Translations under genes and position numbers: made by a program
Shown: one piece after another, positions 10,684 through 62,200 of the stretch
How positions within the stretch are numbered: position 1 is the first letter of the stretch
Layout: each line of letters starts with the position of its first letter
Assembly: GCA_035221665.1 (NCBI GenBank)
Contig: CM069165.1
Span: 24,366,001-24,430,000 of the forward strand
Length of the DNA stretch: 64,000 bases
From: Okamejei kenojei
Lineage: Eukaryota
Reading direction: 5' to 3'
The notes under the pieces: generated by a model
Databases searched by the model: none
Told to the model about the DNA's origin: nothing
Seen by the model: only the letters and a program-made list of their open reading frames with translations

Positions 10684-10830
10684 TCCTTCTTCTTCTTCTT
10701 CTTTCGTGTGGCGTGCACAGCCTAAAGTTGTTGGACAACTTGTTCTATTTGATCTTCCGTTTGTGCACGTCGAGTTGATTGCATTAGTCGAAACTGGGCG
10801 GACCACGTGAAGGTTGCAATCTTCCTCTCC
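10684..10830 (-). mobile_element. Short retroposon with 5' HDV-like ribozyme and (GAA)n tail (family A, copy 1)
   Basis: TSD ACTTA(A/G)CTTGTTC at 10671-10683 and 10831-10843; (CTT)n at the left end; homologous to 40787-40917. Confidence 0.8.
10777..10830 (-). ncRNA. HDV-like ribozyme (P1 partly decayed)
   Basis: GGAGAGG AA GAUUGCA ACC UUCACGU GGU CCGCCCA G UUUCGA CUAA UGCAAUC: P2 7 bp perfect, P3 ACC/GGU, L3 UUCACGU, J4/2 CUAA. Confidence 0.65.
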
Positions 10831-13149: not shown

Positions 13150-14290
13150 TGACAAATCTTATTCTCACCTCTCAGGTCTCAGGCAATGGTAATTCCCAAC
13201 AAGAAAATAGGTTAATGACATTCCAGTCATATAATGTTGACAATAAGTGGTATGATGTGTGTCACCATCAACATCTTGGGAAAGCCCATTGATCAGAATT
13301 TAACTGGAAGGTGGTTGTAAATACAGGAATAAGGGGTTGGCTATCCAGTGGTAAATTCTCCCAAGCTTTTGCACAATCTAAGAGGTATAAACCAGGAGTG
13401 TGATTGAGTCTCATCTCTTCGATGTCTGGCTGCAGCTCCCATGGTGTATAAACAAACTTGAGATCATCGAGGGTAAAGCAGCGCCTATGATGTTTACTCC
13501 ATCCACTATTCCGTCATTTCATTATGGTGAGACACAACTTGCTATAGTGACTCAGTGGGACAGACAGCATCTCTGGAGAGAAGGAATGGGTGACGTTTCG
13601 GGTCTGAATATGAGTGTCGGCCTGAAACGTCACCCATTCCTTCTCTCCAGAGATGCTGTCTGTCCCACTGAGTTACTCCAGCATTTCGTGTCTACCTTCG
13701 ATCTCAACCAGCATCTGCAGTTCTTTCCTCCACACTTCATTATGGCTGTAGTGTGTATGGAGTATACCAACATGCGATTAAATGTCCACTGGAATAAAAG
13801 AATGCAATATCCATAATGAAATCAATTCAATATTCATATGCATATTCAATATCCCCAAGATGCATCTACAGCATTTTGGTGACAATTTACCCAATACTGC
13901 AGCTGCTGGAGTTACTGCCTCAGAATTCCAGCAACCCAGTTACATCCACCGAGGCAGTGGTACGTTTTCCCAAGCAATTCCACAATATAAGAGGTACAAA
14001 CCAGGAGTGGAATTGAGTCTCATCTATTTGATGTCTGCCTGCAGCTCCAAGAGTGTCTAAACAAACTTGTGATCATCCAGGGTAAAGCAGCCCCTTTGAT
14101 TGTTGCTCCATCTACCATTCGGTCACTGCATCAAAGGTACATTCTGGCTGTCGCGCGTACAATCTGCAGAATGTACTGCAACTTTGACAAGACCTCCCAA
14201 CTAATGACGTCTTGTCTCTGCGAGAGGGACAACAGGCACATGGGAATATCACCATCTGTACAATCCCTCCAATTCACACACCATCCTGTT
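13150..14290 (+). mobile_element. Old degenerate CR1/L2-group LINE remnant with an internal duplication
   Basis: Decayed motifs such as KLEIIEGKAA / IIQGKAAPLI..SLHQR..VA..TICRMYC. Segment 13360-13516 is repeated at 13969-14125. A related remnant lies at about 2780-3018. Confidence 0.5.
13528..13735. mobile_element. Penelope-derived inverted element with 10 bp TSD
   Basis: About 49 bp perfect inverted arms (CTCAGTGGGACAGACAGCATCTCTGGAGAGAAGGAATGGGTGACGTTTC and its reverse complement). TTCATTATGG duplicated at 13518-13527 and 13736-13745. Confidence 0.85.
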
Positions 14291-40394: not shown

Positions 40395-40786
40395 TTAAAT
40401 AAATGCTTATTGTGATGCCAGATATAACTTAGGAAAGTCCCCATGCCAGTATTGAGTACTTTAGACCCTCAAATCGAGCTTTGAAGATCTTGTTCAACAG
40501 TTTATTTACTTCCTAAATTCAGGACCACATCCCAAACCACTGACTGAAGGGAAGCATGAGGGGTAATTCATCGACAACCATGAAACCATCAGTTTTAAAA
40601 TAAAATGTTTGGTATTGATATTGATTTATTCTTGTCACACGTACAGTTCAGTCAAATCACACCAAATATAAGTATATTCAAGCTGTACACAAGCACAACA
40701 GTGCAAAGAGAAAAATACCAGAGTTATTTGTGATACAGTGTTATAATGTTATTGCGTTGCAGTTACAGAGAAGGTGCAAAGGCTGT

Positions 40787-40917
40787 CTGCTTCTTCTTGC
40801 GTATGGTGTGCACCGCCTAAAGTTGTAGGACGACTCCTTCTATTTGATTGTGCACGCCACGTTGATTGCAGTTGTCGAAACAGGACGGGCCACGTGAAGG
40901 TTACAATCTCCCACCCC
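40787..40917 (-). mobile_element. Short retroposon with 5' HDV-like ribozyme and (GAA)n tail (family A, copy 2)
   Basis: Perfect TSD TGCAAAGGCTGT at 40775-40786 and 40918-40929; homologous to 10684-10830. Confidence 0.85.
40864..40917 (-). ncRNA. HDV-like ribozyme with minimal P4
   Basis: GGGGUGG GA GAUUGUA ACC UUCACGU GGC CCGUCCU G UUUCGA CAAC UGCAAUC: 7 bp P1 with G1.U wobble, 7 bp P2, L3 UUCACGU, C at the start of J4/2. P3 has one mismatch in this copy. Confidence 0.7.
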
Positions 40918-41436
40918 TGCAAAGGCTGTAATGTGGTAGATCGGGAACTCTGGACTACAACCTTGGGCCATTCAACGGGGAGAAGCTTTCTCCAAATCTG
41001 GTGGTACGTGCTTTAATCTTTTGTAGCTTCTGCTCGATGGAAGAGGAGAGGAGAGGAGAGGAGTGATGGGAGTGTTAATGTTGGCTGCTGAGAAAGCATG
41101 AAATGTTGATGTGGGGTGGGGGGGGGGGGGGGGGGAGGCTGTTATTGATGAGCTACGCTTGTTCGGGACAGATCGCCAGTCCAGTTACAGGCATGTAAAC
41201 GGTGGAAAAAGGATTAATTCAGACGTCGTTCGTAACCCATCATTTTTAAATCTAATTTTAGCTTGGAGTAAGGTTGGGGTGATCACACTTTAATTAGGTT
41301 TTGCAAATTTAATATATAAGATTTTTGAATCCCATGACCCCAGATATAAATGGGCCTTGAAATGACTCCCAGGAAGGAAAATTCCTGCGATTGTTTTGAA
41401 AACTTCTGATAGCCACACCAAGTGCCCTGTAATTGA

Positions 41437-46566: not shown

Positions 46567-46834
46567 CTTTCACTGATACAAGGTCTCCTAGACCACTCTT
46601 CTCGTTCTCTCTATAGTTGAATACTTCATTGTTATCATTCTCAGTGCCTTTCTTTGCGTGAATTCCCGTGTGAATATAATTTCTTAAGCCCACGTTCGAT
46701 AAAAATAGTCCTGATTTCTGTGTCTAACCTTGGAATCTGCAGTAAAGGAGCAACCTCAACATTATGTATCTTGTGAAGTGAACCATTGGTGTTTTGAGAC
46801 TGATGGAGCAATTTTCAGGTCAAAACCAATAGCA

Positions 46835-47731
46835 CTTGGCCTCGGAGCTATGGCGGCCTTCCAGCTTCCAGCAGCGGCGGCACGGCTTCGGAGCTCCAGC
46901 GGCGGCCTGGCCTCGGGGCTTCGGAGCTCCAGCGGCTGCCTGGCCTCGGGGCTGCGGTGCTCCAGCGGCGGCCTGGCCTCGGGGCTGCAGTGTTCCAGCG
47001 GCGGCCTGGCCTCGGGGCTGCGGTGCTCCAGCGGCGGCCTGGCCTCGGGGCTGCAGTGCTCCAGCGGCGACCTGGTTTTCGGGGCTGCAGTGTTCCAGCG
47101 GCGGCCTGGCCTCGGGCTGCGGTGCTCCAGCGGCGGCCTGGTTTTCGGGGCTGCAGTGTTCCAGCGGCGGCCTGGCCTCGGCGCTGCGGTGCTCCAGCGG
47201 CGGCCTGGTTTTCGGGGCTGCAGTGCTCCAGCGGCGGCCTGGCCTCGGGGCTGCAGTGTTCCAGCGGCGACCTGGCTTCGGGGCTGCGGTGTTCCAGCGG
47301 CGGCCTGGCCTCGGGGCTGCAGTGCTCCGCGTTCCAGCGGCAGGCCATGTAGCGGTGTTCCGGCATTCCGGCTACGGCGGTGGCGGCAGCCCGACTTCGG
47401 AGGCTCGGCCGCGGGCCTGGTGGACGGCAACATCGGCGGCCTGGATCCTCAGCGCAGAGGGAGAACAAGGAGGGAAGAAGACAGAGACTCTAAGACTTTT
47501 GCCTTCCACCACAGTGAGGAGGTGCCTGGTGAACTCACTGTGGTGGATGTTAAATGTGTTTATTGCGTGTTTTGTTTTTTTATTATATGTTATGACTGCA
47601 AGGTAACGAAAAACACTGTGTGCTTTGCCATGTGAAAGTTAGATTAGATTAGATTAGATTATCCTTTATTGTTGTTCAGACCGAAAGGTCTGAATGACAA
47701 TAAAGGATAATCTAATCTAATCTAATCTAAC
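46835..47731 (+). mobile_element. GC-rich non-autonomous retroelement with internal minisatellite and (ATCTA)n tail
   Basis: 3' module shared with 22243-23009; ends AATGACAATAAAGGATAATCTAATCTAATCT, similar to Rex1-type 3' ends. Confidence 0.65.
46885..47340 (+). repeat. 33 bp GC-rich minisatellite, about 14 units
   Basis: Unit C(G/A)GTG(C/T)TCCAGCGGCGGCCTGGCCTCGGGGCTG with variants (GTTTTCGGGG). Confidence 0.95.
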
Positions 47732-47757
47732 TTTCACATGGCAAAGCACACAGTGTT
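47612..47757. repeat. Near-perfect 146 bp palindrome with a GAAA loop
   Basis: 71 bp arms, complementary except for two adjacent G:T oppositions, closed by TTCAGACC-GAAA-GGTCTGAA. Confidence 0.92.
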
Positions 47758-50452: not shown

Positions 50453-50645
50453 TCTTCTTCCGTGTCCATCTTCCATGTTTCAAATGTTGGCCTCGCTGTC
50501 ATCGTCCACCCTGAAAAGGACCCAAGCTTCTGGCGACAATCAGTGGGAGCCATCACTTGTTGCAATAGATGATGGTGGTAACAGAATTAGCTCAGGATAC
50601 TTCCAGTTTCCAGCCCCGCGACGTGAACGCTTCTGCTATGGGGCC
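50453..50645 (-). mobile_element. Short retroposon with 5' CPEB3-like HDV ribozyme and (GAA)n tail (family B)
   Basis: TSD ATC(A/G)GGCAACT at 50442-50452 and 50646-50656; 3' end GGACACGGAAGAAGA; inserted in a Rex1 remnant. Confidence 0.85.
50579..50645 (-). ncRNA. HDV-like (CPEB3-like) self-cleaving ribozyme
   Basis: GGCCCC A UAGCAGAA GCG UUCACGU CGC GGGGCU GG AAACUGGAAGUAUCCUGAG CUAA UUCUGUUA: P1 6 bp with G1.U, P2 8 bp, P3 GCG/CGC, L3 UUCACGU, J4/2 CUAA. Confidence 0.8.
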
Positions 50646-53854: not shown

Positions 53855-54535
53855 CTTGGATGGAACTGGGTCCTCCTAACAAATAAATTGATTTATTATC
53901 ATCTGGCCTGTTTTCCTGGCACAGTCCCAAATGTATTATTGGTACCTGGGCAAACGATGTTTCCAGTCCATGAAGTATATCTTTGGCAGTCAAGCAGATC
54001 TTCTGTTGATCTGTGGGTGTCAAGTTTGACTATAGACATGGAACCAGAAGCCCTCTGCATGTTCACACACAAGTGCCCGAGGAGACGGCACAACATGCAC
54101 ATTCCCCTTTCTATCCCATCTTGGCAAGCCCCTCTTCATGTTGCAGCTGCCCAGAGCCAATTGCCTGAAGGATCCAAACACCAGCAATTTCTTGGTTAGG
54201 CTGGCCACTGATCTGGTCCTATCTCATGTAATGCCCACATGCTTCTTGGTTTCTTGGTCCTCCAAAATATTCCAAATGGAATTTAATATTTTGGAGGACC
54301 AAGAAACCACAGGCACTTGTGTGTGAACATGCAGAGGGCTTCTGGTTCCATGTCTTTTCGTCAAACTTGACACCCACCGATCAACAGAAGATCTGCTTGA
54401 CTGCCGAAGATATATTTCATGGACTGGAAACATGGTTTGCCCAGGGACCAATAATACATTTGGGACTGTGCCAGGAAAACAGGCCAAATGATAATAAATC
54501 CATTTATTTGTTAGGAGGACCCATTTCAATCCAAG
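53855..54535. repeat. Large inverted repeat (about 223 bp arms) with an internal 25 bp perfect hairpin
   Basis: 53855-54077 vs 54312-54535 are reverse-complementary with scattered mismatches; inner arms at 54247-54271 and 54285-54309. Confidence 0.92.
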
Positions 54536-56059: not shown

Positions 56060-57458
56060 TAGTGGCTTGCAAAAGTATTCATACCCCTTGAACTTTTCCA
56101 CATTTTGTCACGTTACAACCACAAACGTAAATGTATTTTATTGGGATTTTATGTGATAGACCAACACAAATTGGTGCATAATTGTGAAGAGGAAGGAAAA
56201 TGATACATGGTTTCCAAATTTTATTACAAATAAAAAACTGAAAAGTGTGGCGTGCAAAATTATTCAGCCCCCCTGAGTCAATATTTTGTAGAACCACCTT
56301 TCGCTGCAATTACAGCTGCAAATCTTTTGGGGTATGTCTCTACCAGCTTTGCACATCTAGAGACTGAAATTTTGCCCATTCTTCTTTGCAAAATAGCTCA
56401 AGCTCAGTCAGATTGGATGGAGAGCGTCTGTGAACAGCAATTTTCAAGTCTTGCCAGAGATTCTCAATTGGATTTAGGTCTGGACTTTGACTGGGCCATT
56501 CTAACACATGAATATGCTTTGATCTAAACCATTCCATTGTAGCTCTGGCTGTATGTTTCGTTGTCCTGCTGGAAGGTGAACCTCTGCCCCAGTCTCAAGT
56601 CTTTTGCAGACTCTAACAGTTTTTCTTCCAAGATTGCCCTGTATTTGGCTCCATCCATCTTCCCATCAACTCTGACCAGCTTCCCTGACCCTGCTGAAGA
56701 AAAGCATCCCCACAGCATGATGCTGCCACCACCATGTTTCACAGTGGGGATGGTGTGTTCAGGGTGATGTGCAGTGTTAGTTTTCTGCCACACATAGCAT
56801 TTTGCATGTAGGACAAAAACTTCAATTTTGGTCTCATCAGACCAGAGCACCTTTCGCCACATGATTGTTGTGTCCCCCACATGGCTTGTGGCAAACTGCA
56901 AACGGGACTTCTTATGGCTTTGTTTGCAGTTGTGCCATACTCTTTCCATTTTCGGATGATGGATTGAATAGTGCTCCGTGAGAAGTTCAAAGCTTGGGAT
57001 ATTTTTTTATAACCTAACCCTGCTTTAAACTTCTCCACAACTTTATCCCTGACCTGTCTGGTGTGTTCCTTGGGCTTCATGACGCTGTTTGTTCACTAAT
57101 GTTCGCTAACAAACCTCTGAGGCCTTCACAGAACAGCTGCATTTATACTGAGATTAGATTACACACAAGTGGACTCTATTTAATAATTAGGTGACTTCTG
57201 AAGGCAATTGGTTGCAATGGATTTTATTTAGGGGTATCAGAGTAAAGGGGGCTGAATACTTTTGCACGCCACACTTTTCAGTTTTTTATTTGTAAAAAAA
57301 TTTGAAAACCATTTATCATTGTCCTTCCACTTCACAATTATGCACCACTTTGTGTTGGTCTATCACAAAAAATCCCAATAAAATACATTTACGTTTGTGA
57401 TTGTAACGTGACAAAATGTGGAAAAGTTCATGGGGTATGAAACTTTTGCAAGCCACTG
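56060..57458 (-). mobile_element. Tc1-type DNA transposon, internally deleted
   Basis: TA TSD on both sides and about 215 bp TIRs ((C/T)AGTGGCTTGCAAAAGT). Transposase pieces [75 protein letters not shown]. Confidence 0.95.
56283..57080 (-). pseudogene. Tc1 DD34E-type transposase pseudogene
   Basis: Three partial ORFs (56739-57080, 56524-56949, 56340-56537) joined by a deletion after GTTAN and by frameshifts. Confidence 0.9.
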
Positions 57459-59279: not shown

Positions 59280-62200
59280 ATTTACGTATGACTCAAAATA
59301 TCATAATATTATTATCTCGGATCATGCTCCATTAACATTTAAGATAAAATTAAAAGACATAACTATTAAAACCTCTAACTGGAGACTCAACCCCCAAATA
59401 TTAAATTATAAGGCTTGTTATGATTACTTGGTAAAACAGATTAAATTATTTTTTGAAACAAATGCAAACCTGGAATTTCACCATCAGTGCTTTGGGATAC
59501 ATTTAAAGCATTTATGCGTGGTGCGATAATATCAGCACACGCATACTTTAATAAGGAAAATCGAAAGACTCAACAAAAGTTGGAAAATGAAATAAAACAA
59601 TTAGATTTTGAAAATGCAATATCCCCTTCAAAGGGGCTAAGTAATAAAATTGCATCATTAAAATATGCTAAATAAAATATATTCAAGTCAGATTATTAAA
59701 GTTTTTCAACAGACTAAACAAGTACACTTTGAATTTGGGGATAAACCACAAAAATTACTGGCACGCCAGCTTAGAAAATTAGATGAGGAGAAAATGATAC
59801 ATAAAATTAGATCTGAACAAGGAGAAATATTGACTTTACCAAAAGATATCAATGATACATTTTTACAATATTATCAAAATCTTTACTCATCTAAACTAGC
59901 AGGACAATCAGATGGAATGGAAACATTCCTACAAGAATGTCATATTAATAGTTTGGATCAGGAAGGTAGAGACTTGTTAAATGCTGATATATCAAGATAT
60001 TGAAGAATCAATTGGATAATTAAATAACGGAAAAGCCGCAGGCCCTGATGGCTTAAGTGTTGAATTTTATAAGAAGTTTTATGATCTGATCTCTCCACAT
60101 TTACATATAATATATAAATATGCTTATGAACAAGGAAAGTTACCAGAATCATTAAATTAATCTACAATTACACTTATCCCTAAAGCTGATAAAGATTTGG
60201 AAGACCCTGGGTCATACAGAGCAATAGCTCTTTTAAACACTGATCAAAAATACTAACTAAAATTTTATCTCGGGTGCTAAGTTTAGTGATTAATAACTTA
60301 ATACATCATGACCAAACAGGTTTTATCCCAAAACGCTATTCATCTTATAATGAGACGCCTATTCAATATCATATACTCAAAAAGAGTGAATGATATTGAA
60401 CTAGCTGTCATATCCTTAGATGCTGAAAAAGCATTTGACCAGGTTGAATGGCCATATTTATTTAAAATAATGCAGACATTTCAACTGGGGGATAGATTTT
60501 CCAAATGGGTAAAAATCATATACTCGAATCCAACTGCAAGATTATTAAGAAATCAAATGTTATCAGCAAAATGTAATCTCTTTAGGGGTTGTAGACAAGG
60601 ATGCCCATTATCACCATTACTATTTGCTCTGGTAATAGAACCATTAGCCGAAATGATTAGATCAGAACCAGAAATATATGGATATAATACCAAAACTACA
60701 ATGAATAAAATATCTCTATACGCAGATGACATCTTAATTTATATCACAAAACCGGAGATTAGTATTCCCAATCTACTTAATGTTATAACTATGTTTGGCA
60801 CATTTTCTGGGTATAGAATTAACTGGAATAAAAGTGAAATTATGGCTATAACTGGAATAAAATTAAATATATTAGAACAATTCCCACTTAAAATAGTCAC
60901 GGACAAATTTAACTATCTAGGAATTAATGTATCTAAATCCTATAACTGTCTATTTAAATATAATTACCCTCAATTGTTAAATAAACTAAAAAAATATATT
61001 TTATATTGGAAAACACTACCTATTTCAATGATCGGTATGATAAATGCTATAAAAATGATTTTTTGCCACAATTGTTATATTTATTTCAAGCCATCCATTT
61101 ATATCTCTCTAAAATGTTTTTAAAAAAATCCATACTTTGGTTAATAGTTTTATTTGGGACTATAAAAATCATCGAATAAGTAAAACACATCTATGTAAAT
61201 CTAAAATAAATGGTGGACTAGCACTACCAAATTTATTATATTATTTCTGGGCAGTTCAGATTAAGAATATGAATTTTTGGTTGGTAAATTTAGATTATGA
61301 GCCAAGCTGGCTAAAGATGGAAAAGGAAGACTGCCTTTTGATGTAGGTTCGATTCTTTTTGCACCAAGGGAAGTACAAAAAAAAACGCATGGTGATAACC
61401 CCATAATTCATAGCAATAGATGTATTTGGAAACAAATAGTTAAGACCCTACATATGGATAATTTGTCACTTTGTTTGCCAATTATGAATAATCCTTTGTT
61501 TAGGCCCTCTGTATTGGACAAGGGGTTTAGACACTGGAATGATTTAGGAATTAAAAGGATAGAACACCTTAACAAGAAAGGAAAATGTCTTTCATTTCAA
61601 GAGTTACAGGATATCTATGGATTGCAGTCAAATAACATATTTAGGTATTTACAAATTAGAAATTATATTAAGTCAAATACGCAAGACTATAAAAATGGAA
61701 AACCAGGATTATTAGATGAATTGTTTAATAAATACCCAAATACAGAAAAATTAATAGCGTATATATACAATACTATCTTGGATAGGGAAATCCCAACATC
61801 GGAAATATATCGACAAACATGGGAAAATTAAATCGGTTTATCTATAACGAAGGAAACTTGGGAAGAAAGCCTACAATGTATACAACGTTGCTCATTAAAT
61901 GCTAGACATATATTGATACAATTTAAGGTACACAGATTACATTATTCAAAAACGAAATTAAATAGAATTTATCCTAACATTTCTTCTATTTGTGATAAAT
62001 GTCAGAACTTGGAAGCTAATTTAACGCATAGTTTTGTAACATGTATAAAACTCAATTATTATTGGACAGAAATCTTTAGAGTTATCTCTGAAGTTCTTAA
62101 AATTAAACTGGACCCGGATCCAAAATTAATAATATTAGGAGTTCCGGATTCAAATCTAATATTAACAGTAAACCAAAGAAATGTCTTGGATTACTGTTTG

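Follow-up and report, generated by a model that had tools for sequence, protein, structure and literature searches.

A short bipartite derivative of a Vingi-like LINE in Okamejei kenojei, with a predicted P4-less HDV-like ribozyme head and complementary ends

The 64,000-nt stretch of Okamejei kenojei DNA analysed here (GCA_035221665.1, contig CM069165.1, positions 24,366,001 to 24,430,000; hereafter the window) holds a 131-nt element that is read on the minus strand, from 40917 to 40787, and has identical 12-base flanks on both sides. A sequence-only reading had taken it for a "ribozyme-SINE", a short element with no tRNA, 5S or 7SL head that begins at its first base with a minimal HDV-like ribozyme. 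We wondered what kind of element this is, where its two ends come from and what role those ends could play. Papers are cited by PMC number. The element, which we assign to family A, is delimited as follows:

40787..40917, minus strand: family A element, 131 nt, a bipartite non-autonomous derivative of the Vingi-like LINE VA
40918..40929, minus strand: target-site duplication (TSD), 12 bp, before the element's 5′ end
40775..40786, minus strand: TSD, 12 bp, after the tail
40787..40804, minus strand: terminal signature and (GAA)n tail, in a form common to all Vingi-like families of the genome
10692..10825, minus strand: second family A copy in the window, of a longer subfamily and with its first bases damaged

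The perfect 12 bp TSDs previously reported were confirmed, the same 12 bases standing at 40918-40929 and 40775-40786. A DNA search of the 2.76-Gb genome for family A returned 3083 first-look candidates; 40 of these, the window copy among them, were scored, and they cover nearly the full query, the others at 86-91% identity. One mismatch-tolerant rule found TSDs in 25 of 30 copies and in 23 of 870 mismatched flank pairs. In 30 loci the 5′ ends align at the first G, the upstream flanking DNA is unrelated and no conserved column was found upstream of G1. Public contigs from four runs and four organisms leave the element at 40917 into unrelated sequence, and three of these runs each contain 57-75 loose ends at this position. 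Contigs of other organisms enter the window copy by 24-28 bases only (bridging rule), and we claim no shared insertion.

Besides the window copy, 703,774 bases (the window plus loci fetched for other reasons) contain five further family A matches, two of them 5′-truncated. This is a density of about one per 140 kb, which extrapolates roughly to the order of 10^4 copies. The copies examined are 123-137 nt long. Truncation at the 5′ end does occur (L007 and L043), and the searches favour full-length matches. With the two window copies excluded, the copies diverge from the family majority by a mean of 3.5%, in a set that favours close matches; the window copy departs from the majority at 12 of 131 positions.

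Several other repeats share the window. Broken L1-like ORF2 pieces, of the kind that gives the genome's top RT matches, lie at 60302-61831 on the minus strand. A 160-aa frame at 56524-57006, also on the minus strand, presumably resembles a Tc1-type transposase fragment. Long, near-perfect inverted repeats at 47632-47737, 13561-13664 and 54227-54333, whose matches to miRNA models fall far below the gathering score, are probably MITE-like or fold-back repeats. GC-rich tandem repeats at 46715-47635 leave several frames open on both strands.

The parent LINE and its derivatives

The two ends of the element are also the two ends of a much longer element, VA:

40839..40917, minus strand: part from the VA 5′ end (nt 1-79), 89% identical to the full-length VA copy L184
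40829..40838, minus strand: junction of ~10 nt with no BLAST match to VA; joints skipping ~2.9 kb of VA occur in public contigs
40787..40828, minus strand: part from the VA 3′ end (last 42 nt), 100% identical to VA copy L188 over 42 nt, with the family A majority as query
within 40787..40828, minus strand: last ORF codons and stop (stop at 40817-40819), 3′ UTR and GAA tail

Family A thus consists of VA nt 1-79, ~10 junction bases and the last 42 nt of VA. Full-length VA copies share the 54-nt head, at their 5′ boundary, and the last 42 nt with family A, and one of them, L184, spans ~3.04 kb between 12-nt flanks that match at 10 of 12 positions. VA has 1706 first-look candidates in the genome, and all copies examined are broken. 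In public contigs the VA ends are joined across a gap of ~2.9 kb with the family A junction letters between them. Family A has been amplified independently, with TSDs and a GAA tail like those of VA; its copies share the junction and lack the ORF. VA is the partner with the same 5′ and 3′ ends that the sequence-only reading had proposed to look for among Vingi/Ingi-type elements, and the analogy drawn there with RIME and SIDER was right in kind, family A being the two ends of a LINE. The lack of a tRNA, 5S or 7SL head was likewise upheld: no match was detected, and the whole head is the VA 5′ end. The "ribozyme-SINE" class has to be given up for an internally deleted LINE whose head is VA's own 5′ end.

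VA was reached from an endonuclease match, L127, a lower-ranked PF14529 locus among 20 more beyond the top 30. It is a single-ORF element with 17 nt of its end in common with family A, and the head of its family, V1, is HDV-like and has a long P4. Searching with the V1 endonuclease protein brought up further families: 20 loci yielded V2-V5, all of which have a GAA tail and an HDV-like head peculiar to the family, as well as L178, which has the last 40 nt of family A at its end and the first 70 nt inverted, and belongs to VA. Other candidate parents were rejected. V1-V5 are alike in architecture but have at most 17-19 nt in common with family A at the 3′ end; 20 of 150 RVT_1 loci in the genome were all L1-like and gave no match to the element; and the top 30 PF14529 loci belong to a two-ORF Nimb/I-like family without the head.

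The single VA ORF encodes APE and RT domains, and no first ORF lies between the head and the endonuclease. RNase H was detected in none of five VA pieces and two full-length relatives, and was present in the control L117. The ORF is collinear with a 989-aa relative over residues 1-982. An RT tree that includes VA and V1-V3 (V4 and V5 were dropped as too short, and named Vingi, Ingi and RTE proteins are absent from its rows) places VA, V1-V3 and public relatives in one group (96/95) that excludes the Nimb-like, CR1-like and L1 rows. By the definition in PMC13708176 and by the heads of named Vingi, VA classes as a Vingi-like LINE: a single-ORF, RNase-H-less element of ~3 kb. No relative was found in viral contigs.

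VA has given rise to two further derivatives (L329-L357), A2 (VA 1-96 plus the last 40 nt) and A3 (VA 1-90 plus the last ~33 nt). An A2-type query returns 2172 first-look candidates, and family A may have descended from A2. The family A copy at 10692..10825 resembles VA more closely in its J4/2 and in the 5′ strand of the stem described below.

Rearranged copies occur as well. In 4 of 30 VA loci (L181, L183, L189 and L204) the head is inverted at the copy's 5′ side, like a twin-priming inversion, and inverted internal pieces lie upstream of V2 and V3 copies (L163, L169 and L174). Family A copies lie inside, directly before or near VA copies at L188, L198 and L182, and L188 may be a template-switch chimera.

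The predicted ribozyme head

We then considered the first 54 nt, for which the following fold is predicted:

40864..40917, minus strand: predicted P4-less HDV-like ribozyme, element nt 1-54 (from sequence and pair counts)
40911-40917 with 40882-40888, minus strand: P1 strands
40902-40908 with 40864-40870, minus strand: P2 strands
40899-40901 with 40889-40891, minus strand: P3 strands, one pair broken in the window copy
40892-40898, minus strand: L3
40881, minus strand: P1.1 G
40875-40880, minus strand: U-UUCG-A turn
40874, minus strand: putative catalytic C (C44)

In this scheme a 7-bp P1 opened by a G.U pair is followed by a 2-nt J1/2, a 7-bp P2, a 3-bp P3 and a 7-nt L3. P1.1 consists of one pair, six bases form a turn where P4 would stand, and C44 opens the 4-nt J4/2. 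Across 32 aligned family A copies the predicted helices pair at 94% (P1), 97% (P2) and 95% (P3), and the single P1.1 pair at 100%. The first P1 pair is G.U in 26 of the 32 and G-C in 3. The putative catalytic C44 is kept in all 32, the base after it is variable (G in 16, A in 12, T in 3 and C in 1), and A46-A47 of J4/2 are kept in 30. These values agree with the HDV-like fold proposed for the exact 5′ end. The reduction of P4 to a tiny UUCG turn also held, with 6 nt separating C44 from the P1.1 G in both family A and VA, which leaves the P4 domain absent.

All 18 pairs together with C44, A46 and A47 are intact in 15 of the 32 copies. The window copy is among the more damaged ones: one P3 pair is broken (A17 opposite C29) and position 47 is C. 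It is likely to be impaired as a ribozyme. The earlier claim that P1 and P2 are complementary with sequences other than those of the element at 50.6 kb was correct by eye. Between VA and family A, U5-A32 is replaced by U5.G32 and J4/2 differs at its second base only, and the fixed differences leave the pairs and C44 intact.

Covariation gives a divided picture. Within family A there is none (score 0.030, with 287 of 500 shuffles as high), as expected because the copies are decaying descendants of few masters. Across families, by eye, the sequences of P1 and P2 change yet stay complementary, and P4 ranges from absent to >40 nt. P3, again by eye, is ACC/GGU in A, VA, V1, V3, V4, V5, M1 and M3, GCC/GGC in V2 and M4, and GCG/CGC in family B, the family of the element at 50.6 kb. 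The L3 identity reported with that element is true of its window copy and does not extend to family B as a whole, in which 4 of 30 copies have it and most read UCCACGU.

No Rfam match was found for the family A head even at E<=10. The V3, V4 and M1 heads match the Rfam HDV-F-prausnitzii model RF02682 at 32-33 bits, short of the gathering score of 44. Energy folding of the 54-nt head gave z values of +1.6 and -0.1, which are evidence neither for nor against the fold because energy folding cannot score a pseudoknot. Nor is the absent P4 an objection, since theta examples of minimal, P4-less HDV-like ribozymes cleave in vitro (PMC10879173). The family A 5′ end is predicted to fit an HDV-like double pseudoknot without P4.

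Family B (50453-50645 of the window, minus strand; L031-L060) has 2738 candidates. Its head reaches the Rfam gathering score for the mammalian CPEB3 ribozyme, RF00622, at 35.1 bits, and closely resembles the 5′ end of the named Vingi-2_Gav (supplement of PMC5786205). These similarities point to domestication of a Vingi 5′ end as the origin of the CPEB3 ribozyme; we found no such statement in the parts of the literature searched. A direct parent of family B was not found in the genome searches.

Two further observations concern this region of the LINEs. In V1 (L127), V3/V4 (L170, L171), family B, VA (L184) and the metagenome loci L214, L227, L233 and L267, the start of the endonuclease is closely preceded by a small hairpin, pyrimidine-rich in its loop and followed by AG, whose stems look compensatory; family B has kept it and family A has lost it. 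Two loci, L245 (415-520) and L246, have a head of a different type. In the tree no RT sequence lies closer to VA than that of L245, which raises the possibility that families exchange ribozyme heads.

Complementarity of the 5′ and 3′ ends

Beyond the ribozyme, two short segments of the element can pair with each other:

40849..40858, minus strand: 5′ strand of the end-closing stem, element nt 60-69
40805..40814, minus strand: 3′ strand of the end-closing stem, element nt 104-113

The first strand comes from the VA 5′ end and the second from the VA 3′ UTR; in VA they are ~3 kb apart with the whole ORF between them. The hairpin that they form in family A folds better than shuffles (L025, z -3.6, 0 of 200; window copy, z -2.2, 6 of 200). 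The sequence-only reading had seen this hairpin, and in that it was right; it is not a local feature, being the remnant of a ~3-kb 5′-3′ pairing in VA. One mismatch in the VA stem has become a G-C pair in family A. A2 and A3 keep both stem strands in most copies, and the 3′ strand is lost or scrambled in the A2-type copies L320, L331, L354, L355 and L356.

We wondered whether the other families pair their ends in the same way. In V1-V5 and family B, a segment 3-6 nt past P2 is complementary to a segment abutting the terminal signature, with sequences specific to each family. In a 6 x 6 duplex-energy matrix of the genome families, the cognate assignment is the best of 720; taken as single copies, VA, V1 and V2 have 48, 55 and 45 of 300 shuffles as good. 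Metagenome relatives were then added: 80 loci were fetched and 29 examined, most of them lacking one end or the head, and five two-ended families were used. Four of these, tested after the idea was formed, have cognate energies of -17 to -23 vs -5.5 to -10 kcal/mol, with 0, 12, 0 and 2 of 500 dinucleotide shuffles and 3, 0, 0 and 1 of 287 upstream windows as good; the M4 copy pair was chosen by hand, and M4 is strong only with that pair. The L242 stem is paired at 13 of 13 positions.

With the fifth metagenome family added and each family represented by one real copy, a 12 x 12 matrix has a diagonal mean of -18.0 vs -8.8 kcal/mol (sd 3.3), and none of 200000 permutations was as good. The cognate partner is the best in its row for 9 of the 12 families and second in three (V2, V3 and M4), whose representative copies have 102, 315 and 115 of 500 shuffles as good; the family B stem has 1 of 500. 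In these tests the anchors were set by eye, several families stand on one copy, and 7 of the 12 helped to form the idea. L245 and L246 were excluded for their other head type and lack of a usable 3′ end. When the 3′ ends were folded alone, no local stem-loop stood out (z -1.8 to +1.6; eight folds, six families). Over the 12 Vingi-like families compared, the segment past the ribozyme and the one ahead of the 3′ tail are complementary, with a weak signal in three.

Proposed mechanism and comparison with known systems

We consider it probable that family A is an internally deleted, non-coding derivative of VA that has kept the predicted ribozyme and both ends and is likely copied in trans by the VA protein, with both ends required through the closing stem. 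A read-through transcript would be cut just before G1 by the predicted ribozyme, which would fix the 5′ end of the unit RNA; release of a unit RNA from a longer transcript by a ribozyme is described for R2 and L1Tc (PMC6765202, PMC3185411). The segment after the ribozyme would then pair with the segment before the tail and close the RNA into a loop, which in the 3-kb LINE would enclose the ORF and in the derivative would be a simple hairpin. This stem could do the work of the local 3′ stem-loop to which the proteins of other stringent LINEs bind, and target-primed reverse transcription from the GAA tail, a mechanism established elsewhere, would complete the insertion. If the stem is the recognition feature, good templates would need both ends, and derivatives would for that reason be bipartite.

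By analogy with those LINEs, the 5′-3′ stem is likely to be a feature that the LINE protein recognises. A more general form of the idea seems to us about evenly balanced between true and false: that the RNAs of Vingi-type LINEs are loop-closed, that a ribozyme-made 5′ end and the 3′ UTR form a stem recognised by the protein, and that family A is a near-minimal template.

The strongest rival accepts the same origin and the ribozyme and assigns the stem to RNA stability, to cap-independent translation or to a by-product of end copying instead of protein recognition. HDV-like heads have been tied to translation and 5′ protection (PMC6765202, PMC13708176), the stem signal is weak in 3 of the 12 families and some inserted copies lack an intact 3′ strand. 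However, the stem is retained in the non-coding derivatives A, A2 and A3 and in family B, the VA mismatch was turned into a G-C pair in family A, and folding of the 3′ ends alone gave no convincing local stem-loop. We regard this alternative as possible, though clearly the less probable account of the stem.

A second rival, again with the same origin, holds that the 5′ part is also an internal Pol II promoter and that the ribozyme only trims the end. The first 77 nt of L1Tc are both promoter and ribozyme (PMC3185411), and all three VA derivatives retain 79-96 nt of the 5′ end, beyond the 54-nt ribozyme; yet these surplus bases are largely accounted for by the closing-stem strand at nt 60-69. 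We think it unlikely, and it is compatible with the trans-copied, both-ends derivative that we prefer. We think it very improbable that the element is a genuine Pol III SINE whose head is unusual and whose pseudoknot is a vestige with no present role: family A is SINE-like in being short, abundant, TSD-flanked and non-coding, and most individual copies are damaged, but its entire head is the VA 5′ end and matches no tRNA, 5S or 7SL, the differences fixed between VA and A preserve the pairs and C44, and Kojima sets such elements apart from SINEs (PMC4494074).

If loop closure by a protein-recognised stem is true, it would provide a built-in check for full-length templates and explain the clade's bipartite parasites. 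Why bipartite derivatives arise in some clades and not in others is called unknown in PMC5786205, and a family-specific 5′-3′ stem offers a testable answer to why few LINE clades yield internally deleted derivatives. Such a stem would also guide the design of Vingi-based templates for gene insertion, which are made with both UTRs: in PMC13708176, L2-2 donors function with the 3′ UTR alone and Vingi-1 donors were built with both. A candidate P4-less HDV-like ribozyme, moreover, now heads an animal LINE and its high-copy derivatives.

Within the parts of the literature searched, which included PMC5753468, PMC8501958, PMC4494074, PMC3391268 and PMC7245038, we found neither family A nor a report of a P4-less ribozyme on an animal LINE; the family may already have a name in collections beyond that search, such as Repbase and Dfam. 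No report of 5′-3′ pairing in Vingi was found either, in a search whose scope lay outside patents and most subscription papers; such pairing may be known.

Among known systems, the Vingi clade (Vingi-1_Acar, Vingi-2_Gav, Vingi-1_BF, Vingi-2_SPur and Vingi-4_Crp) is defined by one compact ORF that encodes APE and RT and lacks RNase H (PMC13708176), and VA agrees with this. The 5′ ends of named Vingi (supplement of PMC5786205) read as HDV-like folds with an L3 of VA's kind, whereas the VA head differs in sequence and is P4-less; Vingi is not among the ribozyme-bearing clades named in PMC5786205. The minimal HDV-like ribozymes drz-Mtgn and theta share with the family A head the lack of P4 and a catalytic C at the first position of J4/2 (PMC10879173). 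They come from metagenomes, from gut phages and from positions beside tRNAs, whereas the family A head belongs to an animal retrotransposon and its high-copy derivatives and is a predicted ribozyme; the same paper calls the origin and function of the minimal variants open.

L1TcRz/Pr77 of Trypanosoma cruzi is, like the predicted head of VA and family A, a ribozyme at +1 of a LINE (there of the Ingi group) and of its short derivative, with a single-pair P1.1. It differs in having 77 nt with a P4 and experimentally established promoter activity and cleavage, where the family A head is only predicted. In the stringent LINEs ZfL2-1 and ZfL2-2, a stem before the microsatellite tail is the protein binding site (PMC4176376), the role proposed here for the closing stem; that stem is local, whereas the strands in family A and VA lie at opposite ends of the RNA.

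Ribozyme-headed short derivatives are already known as NARTc, SIDER and R2 SIDEs (PMC4035085, PMC6765202), which carry an HDV-like ribozyme at +1 as predicted for family A. RIME (from Ingi), NARTc (from L1Tc), the R2 SIDEs, the Vingi-1_EE derivatives and Bov-A all consist, like family A, of the partner's ends only, with TSDs and without the ORF (PMC5786205, PMC4035085, PMC6765202, PMC4494074). The element is thus a new member of the bipartite non-autonomous LINEs, an already known kind, and differs from the known ones in being shorter, in its P4-less head and in having two ends that can pair with each other, for which we found no earlier description.
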